A stretch of DNA of 64,000 bases from an uncultured virus (IMG/VR IMGVR_UViG_3300025009_000095). Lineage: Duplodnaviria; Heunggongvirae; Uroviricota; Caudoviricetes. The position numbers and the translations under genes are program-made. Below are positions 1 to 64,000 of this stretch, piece after piece. The notes below the pieces were generated by a model that ran no database searches, was not told the origin of the DNA, and saw only the letters and a list, made by a program, of their open reading frames with translations. Position 1 is the stretch's first letter. Each line of letters starts with the position of its first letter. The DNA lies in IMG/VR virus record IMGVR_UViG_3300025009_000095; one strand, 5' to 3'.

Positions 1-250
1 TAGGGCTGCGGGGAATTATTCCCTAGCGGTAGGGTCGGGAGCCATAAACACAGCCGGAGCGTTGCCGTCCTTAATTCTTTCAGGAAATGTCTTTGGCACA
101 TCCCTAGCACCAGATAAACAATACGCGAACCAATCAACAGAGGATAGGCTTTCTCTCGGCGATATCGGAGCATACCGCTTTAGTGGAGTAACCAGATACA
201 AAATAGACAACTCCCACGTTAACGGTATTCAGGACGGAGTCGGGGAATGA
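1..250 (+). CDS. C-terminal fragment of a beta-helix/choice-of-anchor-Q-type protein (5' partial)
   Basis: Frame 2 is open from base 2: RAAGNYSLAVGSGAINTAG...GDIGAYR, matching the Y-x-L-x3-S-x-AI...DIGAY pattern at the end of parallel beta-helix proteins. Confidence 0.55.
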   Translation, partial: RAAGNYSLAVGSGAINTAGALPSLILSGNVFGTSLAPDKQYANQSTEDRLSLGDIGAYRFSGVTRYKIDNSHVNGIQDGVGE

Positions 251-267
251 ATTTACAAGGAAATATT

Positions 268-993
268 ATGAAAACATTTTTAACTACACTGGTAGTTGGC
301 TGCTTCTTTAGCGCCGTTTCGTATGCCGGTGAAATATCGCTATCAGGCAGCGGAACCATGGAGCTCAACGGAACTGGCACGGTAGCTATAGAAGGTGGAT
401 CAGCTCCAGCATACCGCGCTTTACTTGAGGGCGACGAAACGAACGGGGCACCGCTTGCATACGGGACAGGCACAGTTACGAAAGTCAACGCTGCAAATAT
501 CACGTTTACTGAGGCTTCTCAGGGCGTAGGGTTCGACCTTGATGGTGCGACTGATGATATCGTGTCTGTCGGGGTTGCAAATATCAATCCAGACAAATTT
601 CGAATAACGTTCAAGTTCGGTAAGACAGATCAAACCCATGATAATTATGGTAAATTCTTTTGCTTAGGCGCTGAGCAGATACAGTTTATGACCTTGGTTT
701 CCAGCCTCGATTTACAGATAGATTACAACGGAGTCACAATATGGAAAAACATCACGACCACAACATCTTTATTCATAGGGGTTCATGATGTGGAGGTCAA
801 CCTTGATAATGCCACTGACACTGTGTCCGTATACATAGATAACGTGTTGATCACAAATGAGGTTTCTGCTACATGGCCGGGAAACATTGCAACACCAGGT
901 TCGCTTTTTCTCGGCAACAGGTCAACTGGGGACAGGTCGGCTGGCGGAAGAATGGCTGACATCACGATATACGACACACTGAGAGGGGAGTAA
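268..993 (+). CDS. Exported LamG/concanavalin A-like domain protein
   Basis: ATG at 268 after AAGG; signal peptide MKTFLTTLVVGCFFSAVSYA; LamG-like motifs FDLDGATD, VSVYIDN, LFLGNR, GRMADITIYD. Confidence 0.6.
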   Translation: MKTFLTTLVVGCFFSAVSYAGEISLSGSGTMELNGTGTVAIEGGSAPAYRALLEGDETNGAPLAYGTGTVTKVNAANITFTEASQGVGFDLDGATDDIVSVGVANINPDKFRITFKFGKTDQTHDNYGKFFCLGAEQIQFMTLVSSLDLQIDYNGVTIWKNITTTTSLFIGVHDVEVNLDNATDTVSVYIDNVLITNEVSATWPGNIATPGSLFLGNRSTGDRSAGGRMADITIYDTLRGE

Positions 994-2699
994 TGAAGAA
1001 AGCGTATATCATTGCAGGAATGTTACTTATATTGCCAGCACTCTCCCATGCGGCTACACCATGCACTACTAAGACCCTCACAATACAAGGGAAGAACTTC
1101 ACGTTCGATTTTAATTCTGCTGGTGGATCGGCACTGTGTGGCCAGTTCGCAAATCTCGACTGGTGGGTCGCTCCTGCTGTCGGGCAGTCTACTGTTACAG
1201 TCACTGGGGTAACGACAACATCGGATAATTTCATATCTGCTGACGTTGACCCGATAATGGAGTCCATGGGTCTCCGAACGGAGAGTCAGAATTACGGAAA
1301 CTATAGTGCGGCACAGGATATCATTCCCGCGTTGCCACAGTCGTATTCTGGTATAAACTCTATTGTCGCTGCTCTCGAAAAGAATCAGGCCGTTGACGGA
1401 CAGTGCGGCACATCCTCAATTTTAGGGGGGTGTCTATATGTTTATGCAGTTCTTACTATTCTCCCCTCCGTCCCCTCCAATGAAGGAATAGATATGTTGC
1501 GGCCCAACATAACTGGAGAAACGAAAGAAGTAATCACTTGGTCAGACCTCGACCTTACCAGACTTCCGGCGAAGTCTTATTTCCCTGCAAAGACTGAAGC
1601 TGATCTTGAAGTTATCAGGGAGAGGTGGGCGCATAACACGGAAATATTCTCGCTTGATTCTATTGATGGCATGTTCAGTGAAGGCGGCAGAGCGTTTCGT
1701 TCAGAGTTGGTATCGGATGACTATGGTGCTGACAATGGCGGGTATCTTAACAATGGCTTTGTGGCGGTGATGAGTTCTGGAAATACGATTGAGCAGAAGA
1801 AACCAGCCTTAGCGTCGTTACTTTCTTACGGACTGGATATATATCATGCGATGTACGATGCGCCCGTAGGCAGAGAGCGATATTGGGCCGCTGGCGCATC
1901 TCAGGCAGTCGGCAAAGTTACAGCGCCATATTTTCTCGGGGCGTTATTGACCGATGAGACAATAATGGACAAGCTCAAGTTGGAACCAACACGGCTGCAT
2001 GAGTTTGATTATCTGAGAGGGCCACTTGAGCTAGGGCAGATACAGAAGGGAACCGATGCGGCTCCTGTCTGGGGCACTTATGAGACAAACAATGACTTAT
2101 ATTGGGCCGGTGTTGTCTTAGCCCAGAAATATGACGGCGGCACCGGAGCCGGAGGCAACACCAATCAAAAACAAAATTGGGACCCATATGGATACATCGA
2201 CGGTCCTACGGTCTATGGCCCCGCATCTGGATATTTTTCTTCCTCTCGCGGTCCGATGAAAGCACTGGCTGCATTTATGCACATCATGCCTGAGATGTGC
2301 GAGGTAGTAAACTACCCACGGCTCACTACGTTTATCGACCGAGTTGAAAACAGCGGGATACATGCATATCCGGACCCATGCACAACCCCTGACTCCAGGG
2401 ACGTTGCGACCAATTGCCTCCCAGGACAGTCCGGGACGTGCACCTACTATGGCATTACATGGGGGGATGATGGTTCAGGGAACTGCATCACCACTCCCGC
2501 TGCGGGGTACAATAAGGTTGGCCGGTATGTTGATGGGTTTCATGGCCAACCAGACGCAATTGACAGGCAGCAAGCCGATATCGAAGCGGCGTGGACAACG
2601 ATCAGATCAGAATCAGTATGCGGCAGCGGAACACCTGCAAGAATTCGTTACGTTTGGCCAGGCGGGGCGCACGTAACCGGGGCTACTGATTCCGAGTGA
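993..2699 (+). CDS. Exported Cys-rich protein of unknown function
   Basis: 568-aa ORF coupled to the previous gene (TAATG); signal peptide MKKAYIIAGMLLILPALSHA; several paired Cys. Confidence 0.6.
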   Translation: MKKAYIIAGMLLILPALSHAATPCTTKTLTIQGKNFTFDFNSAGGSALCGQFANLDWWVAPAVGQSTVTVTGVTTTSDNFISADVDPIMESMGLRTESQNYGNYSAAQDIIPALPQSYSGINSIVAALEKNQAVDGQCGTSSILGGCLYVYAVLTILPSVPSNEGIDMLRPNITGETKEVITWSDLDLTRLPAKSYFPAKTEADLEVIRERWAHNTEIFSLDSIDGMFSEGGRAFRSELVSDDYGADNGGYLNNGFVAVMSSGNTIEQKKPALASLLSYGLDIYHAMYDAPVGRERYWAAGASQAVGKVTAPYFLGALLTDETIMDKLKLEPTRLHEFDYLRGPLELGQIQKGTDAAPVWGTYETNNDLYWAGVVLAQKYDGGTGAGGNTNQKQNWDPYGYIDGPTVYGPASGYFSSSRGPMKALAAFMHIMPEMCEVVNYPRLTTFIDRVENSGIHAYPDPCTTPDSRDVATNCLPGQSGTCTYYGITWGDDGSGNCITTPAAGYNKVGRYVDGFHGQPDAIDRQQADIEAAWTTIRSESVCGSGTPARIRYVWPGGAHVTGATDSE

Positions 2700-2733
2700 C
2701 GGAATAAAAACAATTAACTAAAGGAGAGATGAA

Positions 2734-3477
2734 ATGAAAGAAACTGACTGGACAAGGAATGTTGGGATAGGCTTATGGCTTTTGGTTTTGTTTTTGGTGA
2801 GCTTGCCGGGATGCGGAACAATAAAGATAACAAGTATCGAAGGTAACATGGGATCTAAAGCTCCTACTACTTCAAAAGATGTTACAGCTGATCCTCTATG
2901 CGGCGATCAAACTATTATAGTCATCGACTCTGGTGGTATGGATTCTCAGCAAGAGGGTGCACTTGGTAGTCAGGGAGCCAATGCTGCGACTGGCGGTATG
3001 ACAGATGCGGTAGCAAAATGGTGGCAGGATTTAAGAAAAACAAATTCAGATAATCCGACGACGACCAACACGACCACCACAAACACCTACAACGTAAGTG
3101 ATAAAGAGGGAACGCTTCAGGATGACTTGAAAGTATCTCCTGGTAATGATGTTCCAAGTGGAGACGTAGACTTCCTTCATGCAAAATCCTATAAAGCATA
3201 TGGGCAGCGCAATGGTGGAAGATGGGCTTGGAGGATACCTGAGCAAGGACCAGATTTCGGGAGCAAAATCAAGGTTGTGTTCTCCGATGGGCATACTGTT
3301 TATGTAGAAGATACTTCTCATAATTATCGTGAAAGTGACGGTTTTGTGTTCAAGCCAGGCCTCGGTCCGAACGGGGAAGGAGAAGCTGATACTGGTACAT
3401 CTCATCATGGAGTTTATCTGCACGCTCCGTACAAAAATAACAGTCAGGATGTAACATTTTATTTTAACGGAAAATGA
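2734..3477 (+). CDS. Putative lipoprotein
   Basis: AAGGAG RBS; hydrophobic stretch ending in lipobox-like LPG-C; Thr-rich linker. Confidence 0.6.
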   Translation: MKETDWTRNVGIGLWLLVLFLVSLPGCGTIKITSIEGNMGSKAPTTSKDVTADPLCGDQTIIVIDSGGMDSQQEGALGSQGANAATGGMTDAVAKWWQDLRKTNSDNPTTTNTTTTNTYNVSDKEGTLQDDLKVSPGNDVPSGDVDFLHAKSYKAYGQRNGGRWAWRIPEQGPDFGSKIKVVFSDGHTVYVEDTSHNYRESDGFVFKPGLGPNGEGEADTGTSHHGVYLHAPYKNNSQDVTFYFNGK

Positions 3478-3755
3478 CTGTCTGCGAGTACTGTTTAACT
3501 GAATTTCATGGTAGAACATTTTGTCCAGAGTGTGGAGTGAGTATTTTGGAGACACGAACGATAGCAGATGAAAGCTTACTGGATATAACGATGCGGGGTG
3601 TTAAAGATCGGTATGCTCAATGCGGTGAACTGTTTTGCTTTGCTTATGATATTATGGGAAAGTTACCTGATATATGGTGTCCTCACTTTCAGCAAATTAA
3701 TGGAAAGAAGACTTGTGATAACTGTGGTACTACTAACAAAGAGGTGAGTAGATGA
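3474..3755 (+). CDS. Small zinc-binding protein
   Basis: Multiple CxxC pairs; ATGA overlap with upstream gene. Confidence 0.5.
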   Translation: MTVCEYCLTEFHGRTFCPECGVSILETRTIADESLLDITMRGVKDRYAQCGELFCFAYDIMGKLPDIWCPHFQQINGKKTCDNCGTTNKEVSR

Positions 3756-4111
3756 ATCTGAAGTTCATGACAGATGTATTTAGAGTAGGTCAGCAAGTTA
3801 GAAATCCAGAGACATGGAAAAACGCGGGCACAATGTTTGCTACAGTAACTGGTCTTCTAGGTATTTCATTTGCGGTTCTAAGGCACTTTGGGTATGTTAC
3901 AGTTGAACTTACTGCTACAGATGCTGAAGTAATAGCAGGAATCTTGATATCTCTTGGAAGTCTTTTCCATATCATCTGGACAAAGATAACGAGTAAGAAG
4001 GTGGGCGTCCCTGGACTAGATAAAGCCGAGCCTGCACCTTCAATACCTGTTAAAGCTGAAAAACTCGAAAGACCAGCTACATCAGGTCAAAGTGAGGCAT
4101 TACGTGGATAA
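3752..4111 (+). CDS. Holin-like membrane protein (2 TM)
   Basis: Two hydrophobic helices and a charged C-terminal tail; late-operon position. Confidence 0.5.
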   Translation: MNLKFMTDVFRVGQQVRNPETWKNAGTMFATVTGLLGISFAVLRHFGYVTVELTATDAEVIAGILISLGSLFHIIWTKITSKKVGVPGLDKAEPAPSIPVKAEKLERPATSGQSEALRG

Positions 4112-4424
4112 TGAGCTAAAGGTTTATCATACACGGCGTAATAGTTTAACTCCAGAAGACTTAGAAGATATAACAGCTATATTTGAGTCCATACAACATA
4201 AAAAGCATTCAGTTGAAGATTGCCGATTTTCGAGCATAACACCTGAAGAGCTTAGAGTTATCATTGAAGGCAATAAAAAGTTTAATGCTATAATGGATGA
4301 TAGCAAGAGTATTATCCGACGATTCTTTACTGTGTTAATTTTATCTGGGTTATCTGGTATTATAATTGCTGGAGTGTGGTCTAAGTTTTCAGCCTCAGTA
4401 AAACGTGTTATAGTTGGTGAATAA
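4092..4424 (+). CDS. Small membrane protein (single C-terminal TM), possible lysis accessory
   Basis: FFTVLILSGLSGIIIAGVW helix; follows the holin-like gene. Confidence 0.45.
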   Translation: MRHYVDNELKVYHTRRNSLTPEDLEDITAIFESIQHKKHSVEDCRFSSITPEELRVIIEGNKKFNAIMDDSKSIIRRFFTVLILSGLSGIIIAGVWSKFSASVKRVIVGE

Positions 4425-4875: not shown

Positions 4876-5544
4876 ATGGCTACTTTTATTGAGTTAAAAA
4901 ATAAAGTTAATGTCCTTGTTGATGATTCTTCTTTAGCTGCTTCTTTGGGTGGTTTTATTAATCAGGGAGTTTCTGAGATTGCTGGTGGGATGCCTTCGTT
5001 GCTAGATGGGATTGCTAATCCACTGCCAAATGTACTTACTCCACCATTACCAGAATTATTTACTATAGATACTGTAGAAACATCTACTGTAGCTGCTTTT
5101 GTAACTATGCCTACTAATTTTCAACGAGAGTTACAATTTGTATCTTCTTCATCGGGAAGTGAGATTGACATAGCACATTCATTTATAGAGTTTGCAGAAA
5201 CGTATCCGTTGTTAAATAAGGTAGGTAATATTTCTGAAGTTATTGAACATGGAAAGAAATTATATTATCAAGGTATTCCTGCTAGTGCTGAAACATTAAC
5301 ACTGCATTATTATAGAAAACCTGTTGATATGATTACTGATACAGCTGTTCCTGATGGAATTCCAGAGCATTTACAAGTATCTCTTTTGGTAAATTTTGCT
5401 GCCTGGAAAGCTCAGGAGCATCTTGAAGATGGTATAGAAGGTGAGACACCGAATACGATTAAGTTTAAAAATCTTTTTCTTGAAGCGATGAGAACTTTTG
5501 AATTAACTCTTCCATCTTATTCACGCGGATTTATGCTTAAATAA
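4876..5544 (+). CDS. Putative head-tail adaptor
   Basis: MATFIELK start and LHYYRKP...DGIPEHL motif typical of podovirus adaptors; first gene of tail block. Confidence 0.55.
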   Translation: MATFIELKNKVNVLVDDSSLAASLGGFINQGVSEIAGGMPSLLDGIANPLPNVLTPPLPELFTIDTVETSTVAAFVTMPTNFQRELQFVSSSSGSEIDIAHSFIEFAETYPLLNKVGNISEVIEHGKKLYYQGIPASAETLTLHYYRKPVDMITDTAVPDGIPEHLQVSLLVNFAAWKAQEHLEDGIEGETPNTIKFKNLFLEAMRTFELTLPSYSRGFMLK

Positions 5545-5549
5545 ATATT

Positions 5550-6479
5550 ATGATTGAAACAGTTAAGATAATTTCCAAATGTACTGGAATAAATAATAAA
5601 ATAGATCCAAAAAGATTGAATGAGAATGTTCAAGAAACTGGATCAGCAGATATAGCTGAAGGTGTAAATGTTAATATTGATGATTCTGGTCAAATCATAA
5701 GCAGACCGGGACAACTTGAGATTTCATCTGTACCTTCGCAAGTTTGGTGTGATAAGGCAGAAGGTTTTCAAGTTCAGCAACGAATCAGTGATGCGGCAAT
5801 ATTTCAACTCAATCCTGATGCAAGTGTTCCTGCAACTCCAGTTGTTACAGGATTAGTTAAAGGACAGAGACTTGGTTTTTGGCAAGCAGGTGATAAAACT
5901 TACTGGTCAAGCCTTTCAGCACATGGACTTATTGTTGATGGAATAAACTACGATTGGCCAGGATATAATCATGTTGGAGCAGCAACACAGAAAGTTTTTT
6001 ATCCTGCTCCTTACGGTAATAAGATATGTATCTTCAAAGGAAGAATGTGGATTGCAATTGGCAAGGAGATATGGGTTTCTGAATATTTAGCGTTTGGTAA
6101 GTTTAGACTTGCTGCGATGGTTCTTCCATTTGTATCAGATGTCCTGATGATGAAACCTGTTGAGGGTGGTGTATGGGTATCTGATAGTGAGAAGATTTGG
6201 TTTCTTGCTGATGAAGGAAAGTTTGAATCACTGAAGTGGATCAAGAAAGCTTCCTTTCCTGCTCATGAATTTTCAGAAAATATTGAATTGACTGATTACT
6301 CTGATACATATCTTCAAATACTTGGCTTGTGCGCTACATGGGGAAGTAACGAAGGTAAGTGTATTGGTACTCCTGATGGGCGTTTGATTGTTCCTACGAA
6401 AAATAAACTTTATTATCCGACCGGAACACAAGGCTGTACTGTTGTCGATGGTCATAATATAATTAATTCGGTGTGGTAA
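5550..6479 (+). CDS. Tail protein (nozzle/stabilisation-like)
   Basis: GINN...NVNIDDSGQIISRPG N-terminus; beta-rich; follows the adaptor. Confidence 0.5.
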   Translation: MIETVKIISKCTGINNKIDPKRLNENVQETGSADIAEGVNVNIDDSGQIISRPGQLEISSVPSQVWCDKAEGFQVQQRISDAAIFQLNPDASVPATPVVTGLVKGQRLGFWQAGDKTYWSSLSAHGLIVDGINYDWPGYNHVGAATQKVFYPAPYGNKICIFKGRMWIAIGKEIWVSEYLAFGKFRLAAMVLPFVSDVLMMKPVEGGVWVSDSEKIWFLADEGKFESLKWIKKASFPAHEFSENIELTDYSDTYLQILGLCATWGSNEGKCIGTPDGRLIVPTKNKLYYPTGTQGCTVVDGHNIINSVW

Positions 6480-6480
6480 T

Positions 6481-7938
6481 ATGGCATATACAGAAGCAAC
6501 TGCAATAGTTCCAATTGAACAACGAAGTACTGATGATATAGCTAGGATTCATGATCCATGGCCTGCAGTTACTCCGTCTGCTCCATATACGCTGATCAAT
6601 GAGAAGTTTGATCGGACGATGGAAGTGGCTGAGGAATATCTTATTAAACTGAATGGTGTTGATGGAAACTCTGGGTATCTTGGGACACTGAATAGCCTGA
6701 TTACATCTTATGCACTTCCAACAGATTTACCTACACTGACGATTGATATTGATATTACAACACCAACAGCAGGAGTATCACCACCAACCGCTAATCTTAC
6801 TGGTGTAGATATTACATTTGATTCATTTGATGTTACTGCACCTGTACCTATTGTCCTGCCTACTATTGATACAAGTAGTCTTGCATTGATTACACCTCCT
6901 GATTCAGGTATTACTACAACTATCAATTGGACAGAGATACCATTATCTAGCACTTTGTATGACCTGCTCGTAGCCAGGATCATAGCAGATATTACTACTG
7001 GTGCAACTGGTCTTGCTCCTGGAATTTTAGAAGATGAATTTGCTCAAACTTTAGCTCGGCAAGCAATTGAAGATGATAAAGCTCAATTAGAGATTGAAGA
7101 ATATTTCAGTTCAAGAGGATGTGAGCTCCCAACAGGTATGTTTGCCGCTAGACTTGCGGAACATCTTAATGAAAGACAGCGTAAAACAGCAGATGTTAAT
7201 GTAAGTCTTACGAGGATCAATGCTGATTTAGCACAGAAAAACTCGCAGTTCATAATTGAACGTGCCTCGGCAATAGAAAAAATGTTACGAGATTCTCGCG
7301 ATGCAGAATCGAACCGCAAGCTTGATAAGGAAAAATCACAGGTTCAATTTATTCTTCAGAAGTTTGCTGAACAAGTTCGTGCTTATATTGGCGAGATGGA
7401 GGCTACAAAGATTTATATTGAAGCTCAAGTTTCAGCATTGCAGGGCGCAGTTGAATATAATAAGGGACTTGTTCAAGTTTATGCAGCACAGGCAGATGTA
7501 CATGAAACTCTTATTAATGCTCAAGCTAAGGCGAATGATGCCATAGTCAGTGTGTACGATGCCGAGATTCGTGGATATGAGGCAGAGTCTAAAGCATTAA
7601 ATGCTGACAAGATGGTTGTAGTGGAGAACAACAAAGCTATTATTGCCAAGGCAGAAGTTGAACTGCGAGCAATTATCGCGAAGATTGATAACTCAATTGA
7701 GGGTTATAAGACTGAAGCAATGCTTAAAGAGCGTGTAACAAATGACATGGCCACTATTACTACACAAATTGTTGCATCAATGGCAAGCTCTACTAATGTC
7801 AACGCTTCGATGGGTTATACTGGTAGTGAGAGCAGAACTGAGGGATACGATCATAATGAATCAATATCTCAATCTGTCCACTTCAGTCAGTCAATCAGTG
7901 AAGATCATAGTTATCCACATGAACCAGCAGCAGTATGA
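6481..7938 (+). CDS. Virion structural protein with long coiled coil
   Basis: 485 aa; Pro/Thr-rich region, then helical A/E/K-rich region; tail-block context. Confidence 0.5.
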   Translation: MAYTEATAIVPIEQRSTDDIARIHDPWPAVTPSAPYTLINEKFDRTMEVAEEYLIKLNGVDGNSGYLGTLNSLITSYALPTDLPTLTIDIDITTPTAGVSPPTANLTGVDITFDSFDVTAPVPIVLPTIDTSSLALITPPDSGITTTINWTEIPLSSTLYDLLVARIIADITTGATGLAPGILEDEFAQTLARQAIEDDKAQLEIEEYFSSRGCELPTGMFAARLAEHLNERQRKTADVNVSLTRINADLAQKNSQFIIERASAIEKMLRDSRDAESNRKLDKEKSQVQFILQKFAEQVRAYIGEMEATKIYIEAQVSALQGAVEYNKGLVQVYAAQADVHETLINAQAKANDAIVSVYDAEIRGYEAESKALNADKMVVVENNKAIIAKAEVELRAIIAKIDNSIEGYKTEAMLKERVTNDMATITTQIVASMASSTNVNASMGYTGSESRTEGYDHNESISQSVHFSQSISEDHSYPHEPAAV

Positions 7939-9749
7939 GAGAACCAAAAATCACCACTACTGGCAATCGCTTTGCTGCGCAGAGATTCTATAAAGAAGCT
8001 CGTGAACAAATGCGAGAACTCAAGCGGAGTATGAAGCCGGGCAAGCTCCAGCAGAATAAACTGGAAAAGCGTCCCTATCCTGGTGTGGTGATTTCTTGTC
8101 ATTCATGGATGGGAAATGATACAGTAAATATTCATGTTGATCCTGTTCTTGTTCCTATTAAAGCAGGCAAGCAAGAATTTAAAATACTTGAAGAATTTTT
8201 TTGGTATGCTTTTAATGTATCAAGGACTGGTAGCACAGTATATTCTGGAGGAAATATTCTTCTTGGAATAGGAACTGATTCATTTGGTAATTCTTATGTT
8301 GGTGGTGGATCAAATCTTGGTGCTGATTCATGGACAACCAGAGCGCCAATCATTATTAAGTATGATAAAGATGGTGTATTTCAATGGCGTAAGGTTGTTA
8401 ATGGTGGAAGTGGCATGGATCAGATACAAGCACTTTCATACGAAAATCCAGCAGGAAATATTTATGCAGGATATATTCAAGAAAATTCTTTGCGAGGCGA
8501 TAATCCTGATGCATATGTTGTTAAGTATCAAAAGGATGGAACACTTGTATGGCAACAGAAATTAACTCATAGTGATCCGACTATTGCAATTTTTATAAAC
8601 GGATGTGCGTTAGATGTTAATGTTTCAGATAGCAGTCTTACATGCTGTGCAATATGTGGAATGCTTATTCATTATGATGCTTGTATGTATCGTACATATT
8701 TAACTCAGTTTGCTGCTGATGGATCATTGAATTGGCAAAGAAATATTGGTTTATTTGTTGATGGAGATCCGCGAGATTGTGAGTCTGGTGGCGCTTGGTC
8801 AGATGGGGAATCAACAACAGATGGCTTACAAAGGATTGAAGAACCGTGTCAACTCAGATCTTGCTCAGTAGATGCTAGTGGAGATATTTATGGTGTAGGC
8901 CATATTTATGGTATTGGAAGTGTTGTACCTTCAGGTCTTATCATGAAGTTTTCATCAAGCGGTACATTGGTATGGAAACGAGCAATTAATGGGTTCAGGT
9001 TTCAGAACAATGAACTGATTGGCGTGTATAGTAAGGGACTTTATTTGATAGATAATTGTATTGATGCTGAAGGAAATATTTATATATCTGGATATACTCA
9101 AGTTAATTCTGTTCATCGTTGTCATTCTCATGTTTTTAAGTTTGATTCAGATGGAGATCTTTTATGGGGAAAGTCATCGTCTGCATATATGAATGGGGCT
9201 TATGATGTTGATCCTGCTGGAAATATTGCTGTTAGTCCTGGTGGAGTATTTGTTCTTTTTCCAAAAGATAATGTTGGTGGTCTGACATATGGAATGACAC
9301 TGACAAAACTTAATCCGATAGATGGAACTACTATATGGTCACGATATTTGCGAATGCCAGAATTTTCAATTGGAGGAAGTTCTTTTTCTGGCATTAGGCC
9401 ACAAGGGATAGAAGTTAGAAATAACTGTCTTCACATTATTGCTGATATTGAAACAACAGAAATTACAGTAACTATGAAACTTCCTTCTGCTGTAATTCCA
9501 GTTGGAAGATTTCAACAACTTGATGTAAGAGTATCGTCTGATGTTTTTTCAGATATTGAAGATATAGAATACATTGAAGAAGAGGAAGGAGATGGACATT
9601 ACTTTTTTGAGATACAATCAGTATTTGATCTAGACATCAGCGCAGGTGATTTGACAAAATCAACCGTAACAACAGGTGATACTTCAACAGATACTTGGGG
9701 AAGAACAGATAAGATTTTTGTTAAGAAGAAAGAAATTGAAGTTGTATAA
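7935..9749 (+). CDS. Beta-propeller repeat virion protein
   Basis: Repeats D-x-x-GN-I/S-Y...K-Y/F-x-x-DG-x-L-x-W (SBBP-like). Confidence 0.6.
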   Translation: MREPKITTTGNRFAAQRFYKEAREQMRELKRSMKPGKLQQNKLEKRPYPGVVISCHSWMGNDTVNIHVDPVLVPIKAGKQEFKILEEFFWYAFNVSRTGSTVYSGGNILLGIGTDSFGNSYVGGGSNLGADSWTTRAPIIIKYDKDGVFQWRKVVNGGSGMDQIQALSYENPAGNIYAGYIQENSLRGDNPDAYVVKYQKDGTLVWQQKLTHSDPTIAIFINGCALDVNVSDSSLTCCAICGMLIHYDACMYRTYLTQFAADGSLNWQRNIGLFVDGDPRDCESGGAWSDGESTTDGLQRIEEPCQLRSCSVDASGDIYGVGHIYGIGSVVPSGLIMKFSSSGTLVWKRAINGFRFQNNELIGVYSKGLYLIDNCIDAEGNIYISGYTQVNSVHRCHSHVFKFDSDGDLLWGKSSSAYMNGAYDVDPAGNIAVSPGGVFVLFPKDNVGGLTYGMTLTKLNPIDGTTIWSRYLRMPEFSIGGSSFSGIRPQGIEVRNNCLHIIADIETTEITVTMKLPSAVIPVGRFQQLDVRVSSDVFSDIEDIEYIEEEEGDGHYFFEIQSVFDLDISAGDLTKSTVTTGDTSTDTWGRTDKIFVKKKEIEVV

Positions 9750-27725: not shown

Positions 27726-30248
27726 TTAAAACCCTATTTTCTTAACTGCATTATCAACTTGCTCCTGTGTAAACTGATCTATCCCTGCCGTGTTACCTGC
27801 CCACTGAGTGCCAATCTTAGCATCTAACCCTATAGTGAAGCTCTTACCCTTGTAAGTAAAGGTATGTGTCATGTGTTCTTTTATAATCAATAAAATGTTT
27901 ACTAAGTTTGGTATTTGACTTTTATGGAACATAAAAAGATCTGAATCATGAACAGTAGTTAACATTCTAATATCATAACCATCTTTACCAAGCCGAGGAT
28001 CATTAACCATTTTAATTGATCCGCGGTTAAGTAACTCTGCAACAGTAGACTGCGGTTTATAACTGTAAGCATTCCTAAATAATGCAGCGTTCATCTCGCC
28101 AAGAAATCTCTTGGGCCGACCAAACAAATTAAACAAAGTTCTTGTTGATTGTACCTCTTCTTCAATTGACTGATGCCAACGCTTTAAACCAGGAAATCTA
28201 TCAGTATAGTTAGTAAGGAGTCTCTTACAATCTGATTGACTCATAAAGATTTCTTCAGTAGCAAGCTGATCAGAGAAAGTTTGTGGACCCATTGCATAGT
28301 TCGATGCATGAACTACTTTCTTGCCCATATAACGCATAGTAGACTTTTGATCTTCTTTATTATTCTTTGCCTCTTCAATAACTTGTTCAATAGGAACATT
28401 GAAAATCTTACTCGCATTAAAAGAGTGAACGTCAATACCACTAACGAATGACTCGATCATGTTAGCATCTTGACTCAAATATGCAACAACATGAGCTTCA
28501 GCCTTTGCTAAGTCAACCTCACATAAAATCCAATCAGGATCAGCGAGTAAAAAGTATTTAAAAACATACGGAATGTTTTGAAGGTTTGTACCAGTACCAA
28601 AGTAAGTTCCTTCAGTAGCAATTCTGCCTGAGCTTGTTCCAGAAATCTTATGATTACAACGAAGTCGCTTATCTTCATCTACTGAAACATTAAAATAAGT
28701 AGAAACAAGCTTACCGTACTTTCTGATCTTAATTATGATCTTTGCTTCAGTAGAACCTTTACCACCATTCTTAGCTATCCGATGTAGCGCAACAGTATCA
28801 CATGTAGCACTATTTGTCTTTCGATTAATATAAGGCTTAATCATGCAGATGCCATAAAAATATGCAATCATCTGCTTAGAAGAGTTCGGATTAAGTTCTT
28901 TCCCTGCAATCTCATTGAGTTGTTTTTGCAGAGTCTCCATCTTTTCTTCATACTCTGCTTTAGTCTTCTTGATTCCTTCAGTGTCAGTCAAGATACCATT
29001 AAACTCCATTTCCATTAAAGGCTTATGAAGGTCCATGGTGTATTCCATGTCATTTGATGCCTCAAATTCTTCGAGTTCTTTGATTAAGGCTTCAGAGATA
29101 GGAAGTAAATAAGCTGAATCTTTTGCATTATAATACCAATACTGTGGCCAATCCTTTATTACTTTCAAGTGAGATTGTTTGCCATCATCCTTATAGTAAG
29201 GATAATAAGTATAACAAGATGTTAAATAATCAAGACCTTTCGGAAGCTCGGTATAGCATATGTGCTGTGCGAGCATTGTATCAAAATAAAAGTTCTCTGT
29301 TTTAATATTCATCGTTCGCAGGATGAACATTATGTCAAACATTCCATTTTGAAGAATCTTTTTGATATTTTCATCAGCAAGAATCTTTGCACAGCCTATC
29401 CAGATTTTTACTTCTTCTTCAGGAGACCAATAACTTCCCTGATTGTTCATCAGAGGAACGCACATACTCTTGATCTTGCCTTCATCATAAACAGCAAAAG
29501 AAAAGCAAGTAATAAACTTCGGCGTTGCTTCAATATCAAAAGCTACAAATTCTTTTTCCTGAGTAAGAGCATAAAATTGCATAACTTTCTCGAAGCCCGG
29601 CGAGATCGTAAGTTCAGTATTGTCAACCAGTAACTCTGGTTCATCAAGAAGTTTCAGTGCTTTTGTAAAATCTGCAAGCATTGTATAGAAGTGTGTAGGC
29701 TTGCCTAAGAACGTAGTAAATGATGGATGAAAGGAAAAACCTATGATCTTGCCAGCAAGTTTTTCTTTCAAGTGAGGAAAGCTTTCAGCAGGATAAAATG
29801 ATCCTCTGTATTTTTGAATAGAGTCAAACTTAGGCTCATCAATAAGCAGCCGTATGGCAGTATCTCCGAGTAGCATAATTATTTTGCCTGGAAATTCTGC
29901 AAGCTCATTGATCAAATTGTTCTGAAGCTCACCCCATTTCGGATGCCGCCAGCCCTTTTCAGTCCACAGCTTGCTGATATTATTCTTGGGTAGCTTTGCT
30001 TTACAAGCATGTGTCAAATAGATTTGATACCTTGCCAACCTAACTGCTGCACAAATACGATTAAACTGTGCACCAACTGGGCCAACAAAAGGTTCATTCT
30101 TTAATACTTCAATATCATTAGGAGCATCACCGACCATAGCAATGATCGCGGTCTTGATGTTGTCCGTTGGCAGACATTCTACAGCAAGGACATCAAAAGA
30201 ACTCTTCTTCTGATCTTGTTCGCTTGTAGGATCTTTTGGAATTTTCAT
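27726..30248 (-). CDS. polA: Family A DNA polymerase with N-terminal family-4 UDG-like domain
   Basis: UDG motifs GDAP..E....PFVG and FHPSF; exonuclease FDIE/QNGMFD/YNAKD; polymerase NLQNIP, DLAKAE, RYMGKKVVHASNY, VHDS. Confidence 0.9.
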   Translation of the reverse strand: MKIPKDPTSEQDQKKSSFDVLAVECLPTDNIKTAIIAMVGDAPNDIEVLKNEPFVGPVGAQFNRICAAVRLARYQIYLTHACKAKLPKNNISKLWTEKGWRHPKWGELQNNLINELAEFPGKIIMLLGDTAIRLLIDEPKFDSIQKYRGSFYPAESFPHLKEKLAGKIIGFSFHPSFTTFLGKPTHFYTMLADFTKALKLLDEPELLVDNTELTISPGFEKVMQFYALTQEKEFVAFDIEATPKFITCFSFAVYDEGKIKSMCVPLMNNQGSYWSPEEEVKIWIGCAKILADENIKKILQNGMFDIMFILRTMNIKTENFYFDTMLAQHICYTELPKGLDYLTSCYTYYPYYKDDGKQSHLKVIKDWPQYWYYNAKDSAYLLPISEALIKELEEFEASNDMEYTMDLHKPLMEMEFNGILTDTEGIKKTKAEYEEKMETLQKQLNEIAGKELNPNSSKQMIAYFYGICMIKPYINRKTNSATCDTVALHRIAKNGGKGSTEAKIIIKIRKYGKLVSTYFNVSVDEDKRLRCNHKISGTSSGRIATEGTYFGTGTNLQNIPYVFKYFLLADPDWILCEVDLAKAEAHVVAYLSQDANMIESFVSGIDVHSFNASKIFNVPIEQVIEEAKNNKEDQKSTMRYMGKKVVHASNYAMGPQTFSDQLATEEIFMSQSDCKRLLTNYTDRFPGLKRWHQSIEEEVQSTRTLFNLFGRPKRFLGEMNAALFRNAYSYKPQSTVAELLNRGSIKMVNDPRLGKDGYDIRMLTTVHDSDLFMFHKSQIPNLVNILLIIKEHMTHTFTYKGKSFTIGLDAKIGTQWAGNTAGIDQFTQEQVDNAVKKIGF

Positions 30249-45415: not shown

Positions 45416-46066
45416 TTATTTAATGTTCAGTAATGCCGGATTAAGCACGCCTCCTGATTTATTAGCTAGTTCGCCTTCATTACTAATTTGAGTATCAAGA
45501 TTATGCCAAACGCGCAGTTCTTCACCATAGAGCCAAACCTTAGAAAGTATTCCAACAGCACAACCATACATAAAACCAGTAATTCCTTCAATATCTGCAA
45601 GATGTGAACATTCTTCTGCAATATCAGCTATTTGTTCTCCTGAGGCTTTTCGCACTTCCATTAATTGTGCCCATCTTTCTGCATAGATTATCACAGTACC
45701 ACCATATGAATCTGTATTCTTTTCACAGATTTTTTTCCATCCTTCATTATCTCGCAAGCTCATATGCTCTGGAGCATTTTTAAGCATATTGGCAAGTTTA
45801 TCTTTCTTTTCTTTTTCTTTACGTTGATAATCTTCTTGTTGTTTTTTATATTCTGGTGATGCTATGTATTCTTCATGTAAGCGGCGCGATTCATTTTTGT
45901 AAGATTGAGCTAAAGATTTTGAGGCACTGGTTGGTAAAGCTATAAGTTTTTGCCCATTAAATTCAAATTCTATATAACAATGTTTTGCTTTTGCCATGAT
46001 TACGGCTTTTTCACATGCTGCATTAATATCACATCCTGCATAAATTTCTATTTTTTCAGTTTTCAT
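45416..46066 (-). CDS. Phage hypothetical protein
   Basis: 216 aa; GITGFMYGCAVGILSKVW. Confidence 0.55.
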   Translation of the reverse strand: MKTEKIEIYAGCDINAACEKAVIMAKAKHCYIEFEFNGQKLIALPTSASKSLAQSYKNESRRLHEEYIASPEYKKQQEDYQRKEKEKKDKLANMLKNAPEHMSLRDNEGWKKICEKNTDSYGGTVIIYAERWAQLMEVRKASGEQIADIAEECSHLADIEGITGFMYGCAVGILSKVWLYGEELRVWHNLDTQISNEGELANKSGGVLNPALLNIK

Positions 46067-52237: not shown

Positions 52238-52966
52238 ATGCTCAAAGAACTGCGAACCCAGCACAGAACGATCATCCAGATGGTCTTCGCAGGATACAAG
52301 AACAACGAAATCGCCGAGCGTCTTGAAATGTCTGCCTGCACAGTCTCTCAAATCGTCCGATCTCCACTAGGCCAGGCATACTTGGAAGGCCTCCAAGATA
52401 AAGCACAAGAAGCAACTCTAGACGTTCGCAAGAAGCTCGTATCGCTGAACAAGAGTGCCTTAAGTGTTCTCGAGCGCGTGATGAATCCAGCTGAAAAGGC
52501 TCCTCACGTAGTTCAGTTAAATGCAGCCAAAGATGTCCTTGACAGAACAGGCTACAAAGCACCAGACAGATTGCATGTTGACATGACAATGCAGACCAAG
52601 ACAGATGCAGAGATCGAGGCAGAAATCCTGGCCATGCAAGAAAGCATCATGAAGACATATCACCAGGACCCGAATCAGCTAGCCGAGCCGAAGAAAACTG
52701 TGGACGCAGAAAATGTTACGTTCACTGATGAACACCAAGAACAAGAAGAAGAACTTGACTTAGAACTCGAACTTGACTTCGCTCTTGAAGTAGAAATTGA
52801 AGAAATGGGCTCTTCCGATCAACCTGATAACTTTTCCCAAAACGATAGTAATCAAGATGATTTGTCCAGCACTTGTAATGCCTCCCGCAATGCACTTAGT
52901 CAACTGTCGGAAGAGTCCATTTCTTTGCTCTCTAAAATACCAGCAAACATCTTTCAACCAACGTAA
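52238..52966 (+). CDS. terS: Putative terminase small subunit
   Basis: N-terminal HTH (NNEIAERLEMSACTVSQIV), AAKDVLDRTG motif, acidic tail; directly before terL. Confidence 0.65.
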   Translation: MLKELRTQHRTIIQMVFAGYKNNEIAERLEMSACTVSQIVRSPLGQAYLEGLQDKAQEATLDVRKKLVSLNKSALSVLERVMNPAEKAPHVVQLNAAKDVLDRTGYKAPDRLHVDMTMQTKTDAEIEAEILAMQESIMKTYHQDPNQLAEPKKTVDAENVTFTDEHQEQEEELDLELELDFALEVEIEEMGSSDQPDNFSQNDSNQDDLSSTCNASRNALSQLSEESISLLSKIPANIFQPT

Positions 52967-57455: not shown

Positions 57456-57782
57456 ATGCAAGAACAAGACATTAATCAATCAGGGATCTTGCCTACTGGT
57501 GGGCACCTGCTAGTCCTTCCTGATAAGGTTGAGGAAAAGACTGCTGGCGGAATTTACCTGCCTCAGACTACACGTGACAAGGAGCAACTTGCTGCTACAG
57601 TTGGAAGGTTGATTGCAGTTGGGCCTGGTGCCTGGACTGATCTTGATGATGGACAACCATGGGCTATAGTAGGCGACAAGGTCAGTTATGCTAGGCATGC
57701 TGGAGTTGCGATGACTGGTCAAGATGGTCAAGATTACGTATTGATTAATGATAATGATGTACTTGCAAAATTACTTTTTTAA
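57456..57782 (+). CDS. groES: Co-chaperonin GroES (Cpn10)
   Basis: EEKTAGGIYLP mobile loop, IAVGPG, VGDKV, LINDNDVLA. Confidence 0.9.
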   Translation: MQEQDINQSGILPTGGHLLVLPDKVEEKTAGGIYLPQTTRDKEQLAATVGRLIAVGPGAWTDLDDGQPWAIVGDKVSYARHAGVAMTGQDGQDYVLINDNDVLAKLLF

Positions 57783-61233: not shown

Positions 61234-61273
61234 AAAGTCCATAGTAATAGATTAATAATTACTATGGGCTTTT
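61234..61273 (+). terminator. Probable (leaky) intrinsic terminator
   Basis: AAAGTCCATAGTAAT-N9-ATTACTATGGGCTTTT. Confidence 0.55.
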
Positions 61274-61282
61274 GGAGGAATC

Positions 61283-61591
61283 ATGAGAGCAAAAACACTA
61301 ATAGCGCCAACAGAAGCTGCTGCAAAAAAGATATTAATTATTGATAGTTTAAATCTTAATGGATCAATTTCTATTGTAGGACTTGTTACTACTGAAAGTG
61401 TTGCTATTGAGATTCCTAAAGTAGAAAATCCCGACGTAAGTACTGATACTGATTGGACACCACTTGTTTATGATGGGACTACTTATGTTTTAGATGTAGA
61501 TAATAATAGGAGAAGTATTCCTTTTCGTGGGACATATAGAATTTCTAAGCCTGCAAGTAATGGTAATGCATTTGGAATAGGGTTTGAATAA
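61283..61591 (+). CDS. Hypothetical virion protein
   Basis: GGAGG RBS; beta-rich. Confidence 0.5.
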   Translation: MRAKTLIAPTEAAAKKILIIDSLNLNGSISIVGLVTTESVAIEIPKVENPDVSTDTDWTPLVYDGTTYVLDVDNNRRSIPFRGTYRISKPASNGNAFGIGFE

Positions 61592-62016
61592 TGTTTAGCT
61601 CGCCATTTATAAATCCATTTAATAGTCCTTTTATAGGATTGAATCGGTATGGGAGTTCTTACGCCACAACCTTCGGTAGTTATGCAGCGGTGCCCCTTGA
61701 TACGGTTGTTATGTCGAGGACTATTCAGACACAGGCAACAGGCGCAATCAGCATCACGGCGGACCTGTCCGGGACCGGAGAATATCAGATTAACGGGGGG
61801 CTGTGGACTTCGGCTCCGGGGACTGTTGTCCCAGGAGACTTGATACGGGCGAGGCTGACCAGCTCGGCGCTGTATGAAACGTTGTCTGCCCTTGAGATAA
61901 CCATTGATGGTGTTGCTGATACGTTCAGCGTGACGACCGTAGTGGAGAGCATTGACCTGTTCGCGCACTATACTGGTGAAGAGAACTACACCGATACCAA
62001 CCATTATACGGATTAA
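61591..62016 (+). CDS. Ig-like/beta-sandwich domain protein
   Basis: GEYQINGG.WTS..G.V..GD...RLTSS...TIDGVADTFSVTT surface-protein repeat unit. Confidence 0.5.
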   Translation: MFSSPFINPFNSPFIGLNRYGSSYATTFGSYAAVPLDTVVMSRTIQTQATGAISITADLSGTGEYQINGGLWTSAPGTVVPGDLIRARLTSSALYETLSALEITIDGVADTFSVTTVVESIDLFAHYTGEENYTDTNHYTD

Positions 62017-62019
62017 GAT

Positions 62020-64000
62020 ATGAAAAAAATATTGTTAGTAGCGGCACTGTTACTCGTAGCTTCTCCAGTTTTTGCAGAACAAGGGGACATCACGGTTGGG
62101 ACCGCTGAAGCAAGCGCCAGCCTTGATACGAACTTTGCTAATGCTCAAGCAAACTTTACTGAGTTGTATGGATGGGTAGACCAGGGGGTAAAATCTACGA
62201 ATTCGCCAGTCTTTGCAGGTGTAAACCTTGGAGTTGCTTCAACCACAACAGGACTGCTTAACTTCTACGGCAACACCAAGGCATTCCCTTTCGGGCTGTT
62301 CTCCCAAGGTGCTGACTCTCCTGGGATAGGACTTCGCCTTCCTTCTACAATGCCAACCGTGACATCAATTTTTATAGCTGATACTAATGGTTATATGGAT
62401 TATCTCGATCCAGCAGGGTTTGCCGCAGCTCTCACCTCTGACCAGAATTACGTGTCAGACGCGCAGATTACACTGCTCGAAAATACATCCGGGTCGAACA
62501 CCGGAGATCAAAGCGGAGCAACAGTAGCTTTTGCCGATACTGATAACCTATTCACAGCGACGATGATCGGTCCGGCAATAGAGGAATTTAACGACTCCAT
62601 CAATTCAGGCGTTCCAAATAGCACCGGAGCAAAGGTGCATTGGTCGCAGATCGCAGGGATGCCGGCCGTTTTTGCTGATGGTACGGATGATGGAGCTGCC
62701 GGAGAAGGAATATCCCACGCTACTTCTGATGGGGCATATTACGCCTCGAAAGACGGAGCGTGGGCCAGCCTTACAGGTCTATATCTGGCCGCAGGTGGCA
62801 CTGCGGCAAACTCAGCTCTTCTCGAAAATCATGCTGCCAGTTACTTCCAAACAGCACTTACTGATCCATTAGTCAGAGCAGACATAGACGATATTCCGGT
62901 AAACAGTGAGATCACTGGTCCAGTTTCTTCTAACTGGGCGTATGACCACGGCGCTGCCGCTGACCCACATATCGGTTATGCACTTGAGAGTGCACTCGGC
63001 ACAGCATCATCGCGCAACGCAGAGGATACCCTAACCGATGGGAGCAATCTCCCAGATGGTGCGGCGATCAAAGCGTATGGTGATGCAAATTGGGGCGGCG
63101 GATCTCTCCCGGATGGCACAGCAACCAACCAGCTTCTCCAGTGGAGTGGAACAGCGTGGGCACCAGTTAGTACAATCGCAGGTATAGGGAATATCTCAGG
63201 GGCGGGATCATATAATAAAGTAACGGTGACAGAGCCTGCAACAGGCGCGACACTCACCTTGGCTGATGGTTCAACGCTGGCTACATCAGGGGCGTATTCA
63301 CTTACACTGACTCAAACAGGCAACAGCAACGTAACATTACCGACCGCAGGCACTCTGGCAACGCTTTCCGATATCCCGGCTGGTTCTCTGCCAACCTGTT
63401 CCGTAGATACCCAGACGGTTGAGTGGGATACTACAACAAGCGATTGGATATGTGTTGATACGGTCAGCATTACAGCGGGAACGGGCATCACAATTAGCTC
63501 TGGTGCGATTTCTGTAACAGCCAACACGTACCAGCCACTTGACAGCGATCTGACCTCTATCGCCGCACTCACTACTAATGCCGTGGGCTTGAGCCTCCTT
63601 GACGACACGTCAACCTCTGCCCTGAGAACATCCATCGGCATGACAGCGAACGGGTCTTCTCTGGTCGTTGCGGCTGATTACGCAGCCATGCGGACCTTGC
63701 TTGATCTGGAGGCAGGAACCGACTTCAACTCTTATGATGAGGATTTGACAGACCTCGCAGACGGTTCACTTTCCGGCTCAAAAGTAGGCACCGGAATAAA
63801 CGGCGATAACGTGACATCCGGGACAATTGCTGATGCTCGGATTGCGTCAACAATCACCCGCACAGTAGCATCCGGCACGTCCGCCCTTGGTACCACAGAA
63901 ATAGCTTCAGGCGCGTGTGCTTCTGCCGTGACGACCTCCGCTACTGGAACCGCAACGACTGATGTTATCAATTGGGGATTTAATGGCGATCCTACAGGCG
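62020..64000 (+). CDS. Fibre-like protein with Sec signal peptide (3' partial, >660 aa, absent from ORF track)
   Basis: Frame read by hand is open to the window end; MKKILLVAALLLVASPVFA|EQ; fibre motifs ANFTELY, DPHIGY, QLLQWSGTAW, YQPLDSDLTSIAAL. Confidence 0.8.
   Translation, partial: MKKILLVAALLLVASPVFAEQGDITVGTAEASASLDTNFANAQANFTELYGWVDQGVKSTNSPVFAGVNLGVASTTTGLLNFYGNTKAFPFGLFSQGADSPGIGLRLPSTMPTVTSIFIADTNGYMDYLDPAGFAAALTSDQNYVSDAQITLLENTSGSNTGDQSGATVAFADTDNLFTATMIGPAIEEFNDSINSGVPNSTGAKVHWSQIAGMPAVFADGTDDGAAGEGISHATSDGAYYASKDGAWASLTGLYLAAGGTAANSALLENHAASYFQTALTDPLVRADIDDIPVNSEITGPVSSNWAYDHGAAADPHIGYALESALGTASSRNAEDTLTDGSNLPDGAAIKAYGDANWGGGSLPDGTATNQLLQWSGTAWAPVSTIAGIGNISGAGSYNKVTVTEPATGATLTLADGSTLATSGAYSLTLTQTGNSNVTLPTAGTLATLSDIPAGSLPTCSVDTQTVEWDTTTSDWICVDTVSITAGTGITISSGAISVTANTYQPLDSDLTSIAALTTNAVGLSLLDDTSTSALRTSIGMTANGSSLVVAADYAAMRTLLDLEAGTDFNSYDEDLTDLADGSLSGSKVGTGINGDNVTSGTIADARIASTITRTVASGTSALGTTEIASGACASAVTTSATGTATTDVINWGFNGDPTG

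Follow-up and report, generated by a model that had tools for sequence, protein, structure and literature searches.

The 64,000-nucleotide stretch of an uncultured caudovirus genome analyzed here (IMG/VR record IMGVR_UViG_3300025009_000095; hereafter the window, meaning this stretch at its full length) codes at its 3′ end for a mosaic phage fibre that opens with a signal peptide. This fibre gene leads a run of six consecutive late genes, all of which carry Sec or lipobox N-termini. Judging from its sequence features, the fibre is very probably exported by the Sec machinery. Further, it appears to belong to a very large and mostly exported family (predicted export signals in 126 of the 153 tip-domain proteins examined), in which a pair of cysteines in the C-terminal tip domain accompanies the export signal. 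As to where the exported fibre would act, we favor, at a confidence a little short of even, a glycan-binding kit that stays off the virion, either anchored in the cell envelope or released, over the loading of the fibre onto virions. The coordinates of all features are collected in Table 1.

The fibre open reading frame (ORF) begins with an ATG and stays open to the window end (62020..63999, plus strand; 660 aa). The full-length protein of 708 aa was read from the virus record G001, in which the 660 overlapping residues are 100% identical. Its N-terminus, MKKILLVAALLLVASPVFA/EQGDIT (here and below, a slash marks the predicted boundary), has lysines at positions 2 and 3, an uncharged core (ILLVAALLLVA) and V-F-A at positions −3 to −1. 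All signal peptide calls in this work are rule-based and look for an n-h-c layout that ends in small residues at −3 and −1. For Sec export with cleavage by signal peptidase I, this translates into a positive n-region, an h-region of 7–15 hydrophobic residues and small residues at −3 and −1, and the fibre leader has all three by these rules. Thus, translation and the rule-based scan confirm the initial annotation, which had described, from the letters alone, an ORF with a basic n-region, a hydrophobic core and a V-F-A site. Every fibre motif it had quoted was also located in the ORF: NFTELY at residue 45, GSNTGDQ at 158, DPHxxY at 315, QLLQWSGTAW at 371 and QPLDSDLTSIAAL at 505, along with a C-x8-W-x6-W-x-C hairpin at residues 460–478. 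The homologs P0002 and P0003 have an equivalent W..W hairpin without the cysteines.

The assignment to the fibre type likewise holds, as the shaft modules are common to recognised phage fibres. Scans against Pfam, PHROGs and NCBIfam matched the fibre to no family, and a sequence search of the PDB gave no match at E ≤ 1. A full-length AlphaFold2 monomer model has a mean pLDDT of 58, with the leader helix, the helix at 29–56 and the tip at 610–708 as its usable parts; helix 29–56 and the strands at 78–129 that follow the leader are modeled at a pLDDT of 53–85. A Foldseek search of the PDB with this model recovered nothing at E ≤ 0.001; the best rows for the tip were C-terminal domains of phage tailspikes (7eea, E 7.6e-3, TM 0.08–0.09) and lectins. 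For residues 1–160, the ESM Atlas returned only sub-threshold viral neighbours of the fibre type (scores 0.88–0.89, TM 0.28–0.36).

We then examined the homologs of the fibre for the presence of export signals. Scoring of 8000 candidates yielded 182 proteins at E ≤ 0.001; among the best 120 of these 182, 54 pass the strict signal rule, about six more are borderline by eye, and the remainder include classical signal-less fibre starts. The association with export differs by module. First, the N-module (residues 20–150) is found in 14 proteins, 12 of them with a signal peptide, none with a lipobox and two with neither. Second, the module at 150–290 is shared by 36 signal peptide proteins and three lipoproteins, with six lacking a signal. 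Third, the module at 385–470 is present in seven signal peptide proteins, no lipoproteins and 28 signal-less proteins, the last having classical fibre N-termini. Finally, the tip (600–708) is seen in five proteins with a signal peptide, no lipoproteins and two without a signal. In terms of phyletic spread, 50,697 GenBank phage records held one unrelated weak match covering 8% of the fibre, and 185,579 species genomes held one weak locus only. A viral collection contained 11 fibre loci, all on viral contigs.

The strongest connection with export comes from the tip domain, whose two cysteines are Cys633 and Cys688, the latter lying past the window end. A profile of this region matched 3856 representative proteins at E ≤ 0.001 (892 at E ≤ 1e-30). 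We sampled 153 tip proteins, comprising 148 with new identifiers from the best 150 profile matches and five found earlier. Of these, 107 combine a signal peptide with the cysteine pair and 16 a lipobox with the pair, three have a signal without the pair, 22 have the pair without a signal call, and five have neither. Hence, the pair is present in 123 of the 126 proteins with a signal peptide or lipobox. In contrast, it is missing in all four tip proteins with classical full-length signal-less starts, where the equivalent positions are occupied by Ser/Ser (P0042 and P0256), Ala/Val and Phe/Ala. The association is significant across all rows (Fisher p = 0.005) and also when proteins without a signal are kept only if they have a Met start and at least 300 aa (p = 0.00015). 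The pair is also kept in all six signal peptide fibres of the viral loci. Our main argument that export is real is this co-occurrence of cysteine pair and signal, which also suggests that the tip fold has become suited to an oxidising compartment. It lends support to the earlier proposal of export followed by oxidative folding in the periplasm.

The signal-less relatives offer a second line of evidence. The predicted mature N-termini of relatives of the fibre align with a signal-less fibre from its residue 2 onward; specifically, the mature N-terminus of the fibre from the same-backbone relative L007 aligns with residues 2–34 of a signal-less 321-aa fibre from the phage L025. Moreover, P0080, P0088, P0053 and a phage-encoded 398-aa ORF of L031 carry a lipobox a few residues (8–16) before the fibre N-terminal motif. 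These observations bear on the view that the hydrophobic N-terminus does not work as an export signal and that the protein stays in the cytoplasm as an ordinary tail fibre. That view can draw on the modules common to classical fibres and on the export calls being sequence rules. Nevertheless, we regard it as very unlikely: the n-h-c layout recurs on six consecutive genes and on about half of the 120 listed homologs, whose sequences are divergent; lipobox variants exist; the cysteine pair accompanies the signal; and the signal-less relatives begin exactly at the predicted mature start.

The export signals extend beyond the fibre to the entire gene cluster it heads. The window is the wrapped part of a circular podovirus-like genome of about 66.1 kb, with 2102 bases absent between its end and its start. 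We recognized that it wraps round the circle because its genes at 247–993 and 993–2699 encode the 248-aa and 568-aa proteins that lie downstream of the fibre in G001. The first genes of the window therefore continue the cluster at its end (61650–64000 and then 1–3477). The initial annotation had noted neither the run of six exported genes nor the wrap. The exported genes are translationally coupled, with junctions that range from −4 to +3 bases, the sole larger gap (+34) containing a ribosome-binding-like site, AAAGGAGAG. A crude signal scan flagged eight of the 87 ORFs of the genome, of which five are consecutive in this cluster and the other three have no more than 105 aa; the cassette lipoprotein, the last of the six, escaped the scan on account of its acidic n-region.

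The cluster also stands out in composition and conservation. The island has a GC content of 0.44–0.55 against 0.32–0.40 in its flanks, with the shift at about 61650; the GC-rich block begins about 20 codons into the ORF for a 141-aa protein directly upstream of the fibre and ends with the lipoprotein gene. DNA homology to relatives with the same backbone (L005, G002 and L007) ends at about 61222 and restarts at about 4622. Thus, the exported genes occupy a variable slot of 9.5 kb between the conserved head genes and the adaptor gene. In G002, the same slot codes for a 586-aa fibre, a beta-helix protein, a lipoprotein and a staphylococcal nuclease (SNase), all signal-bearing, followed by membrane-type ORFs and a lysozyme. 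The exported cluster of L005 includes a signal peptide SNase homolog (8696–9163; PF00565, E 2.2e-18) and that of L007 a signal peptide M28 peptidase (5595–6623; E 3.1e-25), while further cargo in the clusters of relatives includes a collagen-repeat fibre with a signal peptide. Weak homologs of the three small genes that follow the lipoprotein in the window come after the exported genes of another phage, G006. We also considered whether secreted proteins rich in cysteine mark such clusters in general and rejected this, as the cluster mean is 0.75 Cys per 100 aa versus 1.66.

Comparisons across phages indicate that the core of this cassette, namely the fibre, the ConA-like protein, the beta-helix protein and the lipoprotein, is mobile: it is found in otherwise unrelated phages beside lysis genes. 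L025, which appears to be a different podovirus, codes for a 232-aa protein 77–85% identical to the 227-aa protein of our cassette, a 512-aa beta-helix protein 82–88% identical to the 514-aa one, and a lipoprotein whose C-terminal domain is 47% identical; it has nothing else in common with the window. Its cassette has a 253-aa fibre-like protein with a signal peptide, and signal-less fibres of 580 aa and 321 aa sit beside the cassette, the former with a weak match to the T7 tail-fibre N-domain (E 0.0011). The N-terminal 134 aa of our fibre are 49% identical to the fibre of G005, and the remaining overlap with this phage is limited to ThyX and two weak matches among tail proteins; indeed, G005, G006 and L009 have almost nothing else in common with the window. 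G005 presents a triad of a signal peptide fibre, a small signal peptide protein and a large one, and G006 has two exported clusters, one of which holds a 597-aa signal peptide protein that is 43% identical to our 568-aa protein. In G005, G006, L025 and L031, the cassette lies after the tail genes and beside lysis genes. Within the backbone of the window, three phages display three classes of mature fibre N-terminus, each of which recurs on other backbones. A strict pairing of the GQG[MC]GPGPGF N-terminus of the 227-aa protein with the fibre tip was rejected: four cassettes fit it, while the tip-bearing fibres of G006 and L009 have no such neighbour, leaving this pairing a weak lead.

The sudden change in GC content near 61650 could also be read as an assembly chimera, with bacterial DNA joined to a phage contig. 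This is exceedingly improbable, given that the identical fibre is recorded from eight contigs (the longest of 66,463 bases) and the identical lipoprotein from nine, that G001 has the identical junction, that phage genes overlap the island genes and close the island on both sides in one circular map, and that the 185,579 species genomes yielded a single weak locus.

In architectural terms, the closest parallel lies in the mosaic adhesive trimer (MAT) fibres of Bdellovibrio bacteriovorus, in which a signal peptide leads into a conserved N-domain rich in beta structure and a shaft of mosaic make-up (Caulton et al. 2024, PMC10769870). Our fibre appears to resemble them in its leader, its modeled N-proximal helix with a small beta-rich region, its mosaic phage-fibre-like shaft, its swappable tip and its presumed glycan binding outside the cytoplasm. 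The comparison with MAT fibres in the initial annotation is thus apt as an analogy. Unlike the MAT genes, the fibre is encoded in the late operon of a lytic-type phage rather than on the chromosome of a predator that displays it on its surface or vesicles; hence, while it may work like a MAT fibre, we liken it to MATs by architecture, not by sequence, and do not class it as one. A Pfam search found no Peptidase_S74 domain in the fibre, which would therefore have to be of the non-S74 MAT type.

A second parallel is the cultured Cellulophaga phage phi10:1 (KC821618), whose gp091–gp094 start with MKKILLLLLFISASLSA/QT and similar sequences and are recorded as structural proteins by experimental MS/MS proteomics. 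Here, as in our phage, consecutive leader-bearing genes occupy the fibre slot, with a leader-bearing pectate lyase next and then small hydrophobic, membrane-like proteins. The two differ in that phi10:1 has a Bacteroidota host, Gln after the cut site, and products annotated as virion components by MS/MS; moreover, the search of 50,697 phage records recovered no sequence similarity between its proteins and the fibre. Classical signal-less mosaic fibres (such as P0042 and the 321-aa fibre of L025) share shaft modules and the N-terminal motif with our fibre, and P0042 also the tip domain; however, they are without the 19-residue leader and the tip cysteine pair (Ser/Ser in P0042).

Tailed-phage assembly is, in the textbook account, wholly cytoplasmic. 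Phages do export proteins that act at the envelope via host Sec or Lol, including the T5 Llp, Cor-type exclusion lipoproteins, the T4 Spackle protein, endolysins with signal peptides or SAR domains, and spanins; the Llp gene lies beside a receptor-binding gene. To our knowledge, none of these is fibre-like. A literature search, mostly at the level of abstracts, turned up no account of tailed-phage fibres that bear signal peptides. In the present system, a phage fibre seems to be combined with Sec export.

We propose that the cassette is a horizontally mobile, late-expressed unit led by the fibre, with the beta-helix protein as a glycanase-like member. In this phage, the unit also includes a second ConA-like protein and the 568-aa protein. 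Late in infection, its products would cross the inner membrane, the fibre signal peptide would be cut at VFA/EQ, and the fibre would trimerise and be stapled by disulfides in the periplasm. It would then remain off the virion, anchored in the envelope or freed at lysis with its partners, as part of a MAT-like kit that would bind and cut host-surface polysaccharide around the lysing cell. The possible gain would be the masking or destruction of receptors, or the clearing of capsule and matrix for the escape of progeny. Several features of the sequences point this way: some relatives are predicted to be membrane-anchored lipoproteins; the N-terminal classes do not follow the phage backbone; the cluster mates include enzymes of a secreted type (SNase and M28); the island is shared with lysis-type genes; and the phage has other candidate tail proteins that are signal-less, namely large products of 1364 aa (with Kelch repeats), 604 aa and 1802 aa.

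A number of observations nonetheless weigh against an off-virion role. The phi10:1 proteins bear leaders and are yet recorded as structural, although they are not homologs of the fibre. The mature N-terminal motif corresponds to the very start of a signal-less fibre, and this, together with the shared modules, gives the protein the apparent build of a virion fibre. A cultured relative, the Alcaligenes phage vB_Af_QDWS535, has in this slot a signal-less 494-aa protein with repeats that by eye resemble a beta-helix or tailspike. The cysteine content of the cluster is not elevated, and there are the 22 tip proteins that keep the cysteine pair without a signal peptide call, many of which look fragmentary. 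We know of no route by which the fibre would cross the outer membrane, and the gain from a free fibre is unclear to us. Finally, tblastn searches with relatives found no signal-less paralog of the tip domain in this genome, so masking of the receptor used by the phage itself is not directly supported.

The principal alternative, which we rate as possible but somewhat less probable, is that a true virion fibre matures outside the cytoplasm and joins the cytoplasm-built particle only once holin action and lysis have brought the compartments together; its ConA-like and beta-helix partners might do likewise, the 141-aa protein being a possible attachment, and the fibre would act on the tail as an additional protein for receptor binding. 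Put more generally, and with the same reserve, the host-recognition gear (fibre, lectin-like adhesin and depolymerase) might be exported by Sec, stapled in the periplasm and fitted onto particles only at lysis, as a plug-in cassette passed between otherwise unrelated phages. The precedent of phi10:1, with leaders in the fibre slot and MS/MS-detected products, is in keeping with this, as is the location of the gene in a late operon between head and tail genes. The same goes for the modules that classical fibres without a signal have in common with ours (including, in P0042, the tip domain) and for the alignment of the L007 mature N-terminus with the start of a signal-less one. The gene order of fibre, small binding protein and depolymerase also resembles what is generally known of receptor-binding modules. 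However, those versions of the fibre that are lipoproteins are tied to the membrane, the N-terminal classes fail to track the backbone, and the cluster mates in relatives are secreted-type enzymes.

The 141-aa protein is informative in this regard in both directions. Its close homologs in other phage contigs (71% identical in L030 and 63% in L031) lie directly 5′ of a signal peptide fibre-like ORF in both cases, and the GC boundary about 20 codons into its gene would be expected if a backbone-specific anchor were kept. On the other hand, G002 and L007, which have the same backbone and signal peptide fibres, are without a homolog, and four distant matches are domains within large signal-less proteins that adjoin no signal peptide fibre. 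The protein itself matches phrog_14394 (E 7.7e-4). Signal-less ORFs of about 100 aa starting with MIRSPI are found directly 5′ of signal peptide fibres in L025 (4926–5225) and L010 (9651–10001). An equivalence between the 141-aa protein and the small MIRSPI ORFs of L025 and G005 was considered and dropped, as the 14–15% identity gives no evidence of homology.

The suggestion in the initial annotation that the exported protein decorates the capsid as a head fibre did not find support, and we deem it highly improbable. All that speaks for it is the position of the gene, past that of the capsid and a pair of small ORFs. The gene belongs to the variable 9.5-kb island with lysis-type membrane proteins, the other side of which is flanked by the adaptor gene; the homologous cassettes of G005, G006, L025 and L031 come after tail genes beside lysis genes; and nothing links the fibre to the capsid protein.

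Either way, the cassette constitutes a defined, testable unit. If the fibres join virions, particle assembly would gain an extracytoplasmic last step, which would matter for the prediction of host range and the reading of viromes, and engineered fibres would need expression in a periplasmic, disulfide-forming setting. If instead they stay off the virion, lytic phages would secrete kits of adhesins and enzymes that reshape the surface and matrix of the dying cell, an unstudied layer of phage–host ecology.

Table 1. Features of the exported-gene island and its borders, in order along the circular genome; positions are those of the window, and a slash marks the predicted boundary in a signal peptide or lipobox.
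Feature	Position	Strand	Remarks
Hairpin, terminator-like	61234..61272	+	15-bp, then UUUUGG; just past the last gene common to same-backbone relatives
102-aa ORF	61283..61591	+	No signal peptide; AT-rich; weakly alignable to a 94-aa ORF of L007; TAATG overlap with next gene
141-aa signal-less protein (USP)	61591..62016	+	Variable N-terminus, FGS..VP.TV.SR motif, Ig-like domain; GC jump inside
Fibre gene, 708 aa	62020..64000	+	First 660 of 708 codons, overruns window end; cut VFA/EQ; family evidence none
Fibre signal peptide	62020..62076	+	19 codons, predicted cut VFA/EQ
C-x8-W-x6-W-x-C hairpin	63397..63453	+	Fibre residues 460–478
Start of C-terminal tip domain	63817..64000	+	Fibre residues about 600–708; pLDDT about 90
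227-aa signal peptide protein	In 2102-base gap		Cut TFA/GQ; weak ConA-like matches
514-aa signal peptide protein	2..250	+	Last 82 codons, rest in gap; cut AWS/VD; Beta_helix PF13229, E 3.2e-7
248-aa signal peptide protein, ConA/LamG-like	247..993	+	Cut SYA/GE; Laminin_G_3 PF13385, E 3.5e-5, below Pfam cut-off
568-aa signal peptide protein	993..2699	+	Cut SHA/AT; 10 Cys; no known family
247-aa lipoprotein	2734..3477	+	Lipobox LVSLPGC/G; no family; last gene of GC-rich island
Variable-island trio	3474..4424	+	Zn-ribbon (93 aa), then 119-aa and 110-aa ORFs, labeled membrane-type (holin-like) from reading the sequence by eye
Adaptor protein	4876..5544	+	PF24175, E 1.2e-10

In the cassette lipoprotein, a hydrophobic stretch precedes the lipobox cysteine, a disordered linker comes next, and the C-terminal domain is beta-rich and conserved. 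Among its 88 homologs (P0122–P0209), 63 have a lipobox-like start, eight another hydrophobic leader and 17 neither; across most of them the C-terminal domain of about 100 aa is 60–85% identical. This domain is mostly found on short lipoproteins, many with acidic linkers as judged by eye, and it is also present in proteins of about 341 aa that form a subfamily lacking signals. The domain is predicted with confidence to adopt a beta-rich fold, for which Foldseek gave no match and VIA-align only generic beta-sandwich rows (best Z 5.2); thus, it appears to be without a clear known fold.

The hairpin upstream of the island has a predicted stability of −17.4 kcal/mol (z −4.1), with none of 200 shuffles as stable, and was not picked up by the terminator consensus scan. 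Consensus scans for promoters and terminators gave sites not above shuffled counts. The genes run in the order terminase, portal, GroES-like protein, scaffold-like protein, major capsid protein (PF25209), a 134-aa gene, the hairpin, the 102-aa and 141-aa ORFs, the six exported genes, and the small Zn-ribbon and hydrophobic (membrane-type) proteins, followed by the SU10-type adaptor (PF24175) and the large tail proteins, with the replication genes on the opposite strand. The portal and capsid proteins are 43–45% and 55% identical, respectively, to their counterparts in Alcaligenes phage vB_Af_QDWS535; phages of Pelagibacter, Roseobacter and Caulobacter are further relatives. A tRNA search found none. 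In the window and the gap together, no endolysin was recognised by Pfam and PHROG scans or by tblastn with the G002 lysozyme and an L025 SleB-like enzyme, and one of the exported uncharacterised proteins could fill this role.

Elsewhere in the genome, a protein with the dATP/dGTP diphosphohydrolase N-terminal domain PF18909 (33361–33852, minus strand; E 1.2e-12) was found; we take this domain to be linked to phages with modified purines. The Pfam scan of the genome covered 37 ORFs of at least 120 aa, and none of these was adenylosuccinate-synthetase-like. A family-A DNA polymerase (27726–30248, minus strand) is fused to an N-terminal domain of the uracil-DNA-glycosylase superfamily. A GroES-like co-chaperonin (phrog_3188; 57456–57779, plus strand) lies within the head module, and a protein with a sigma-70 region 4 (52238–52966, plus strand) is encoded 5′ of the terminase gene. 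Lastly, the genome codes for an anti-defence gene, a Thoeris inhibitor domain of the Tad4 type (PF25186, E 9.6e-27), at 45416–46066 on the minus strand.

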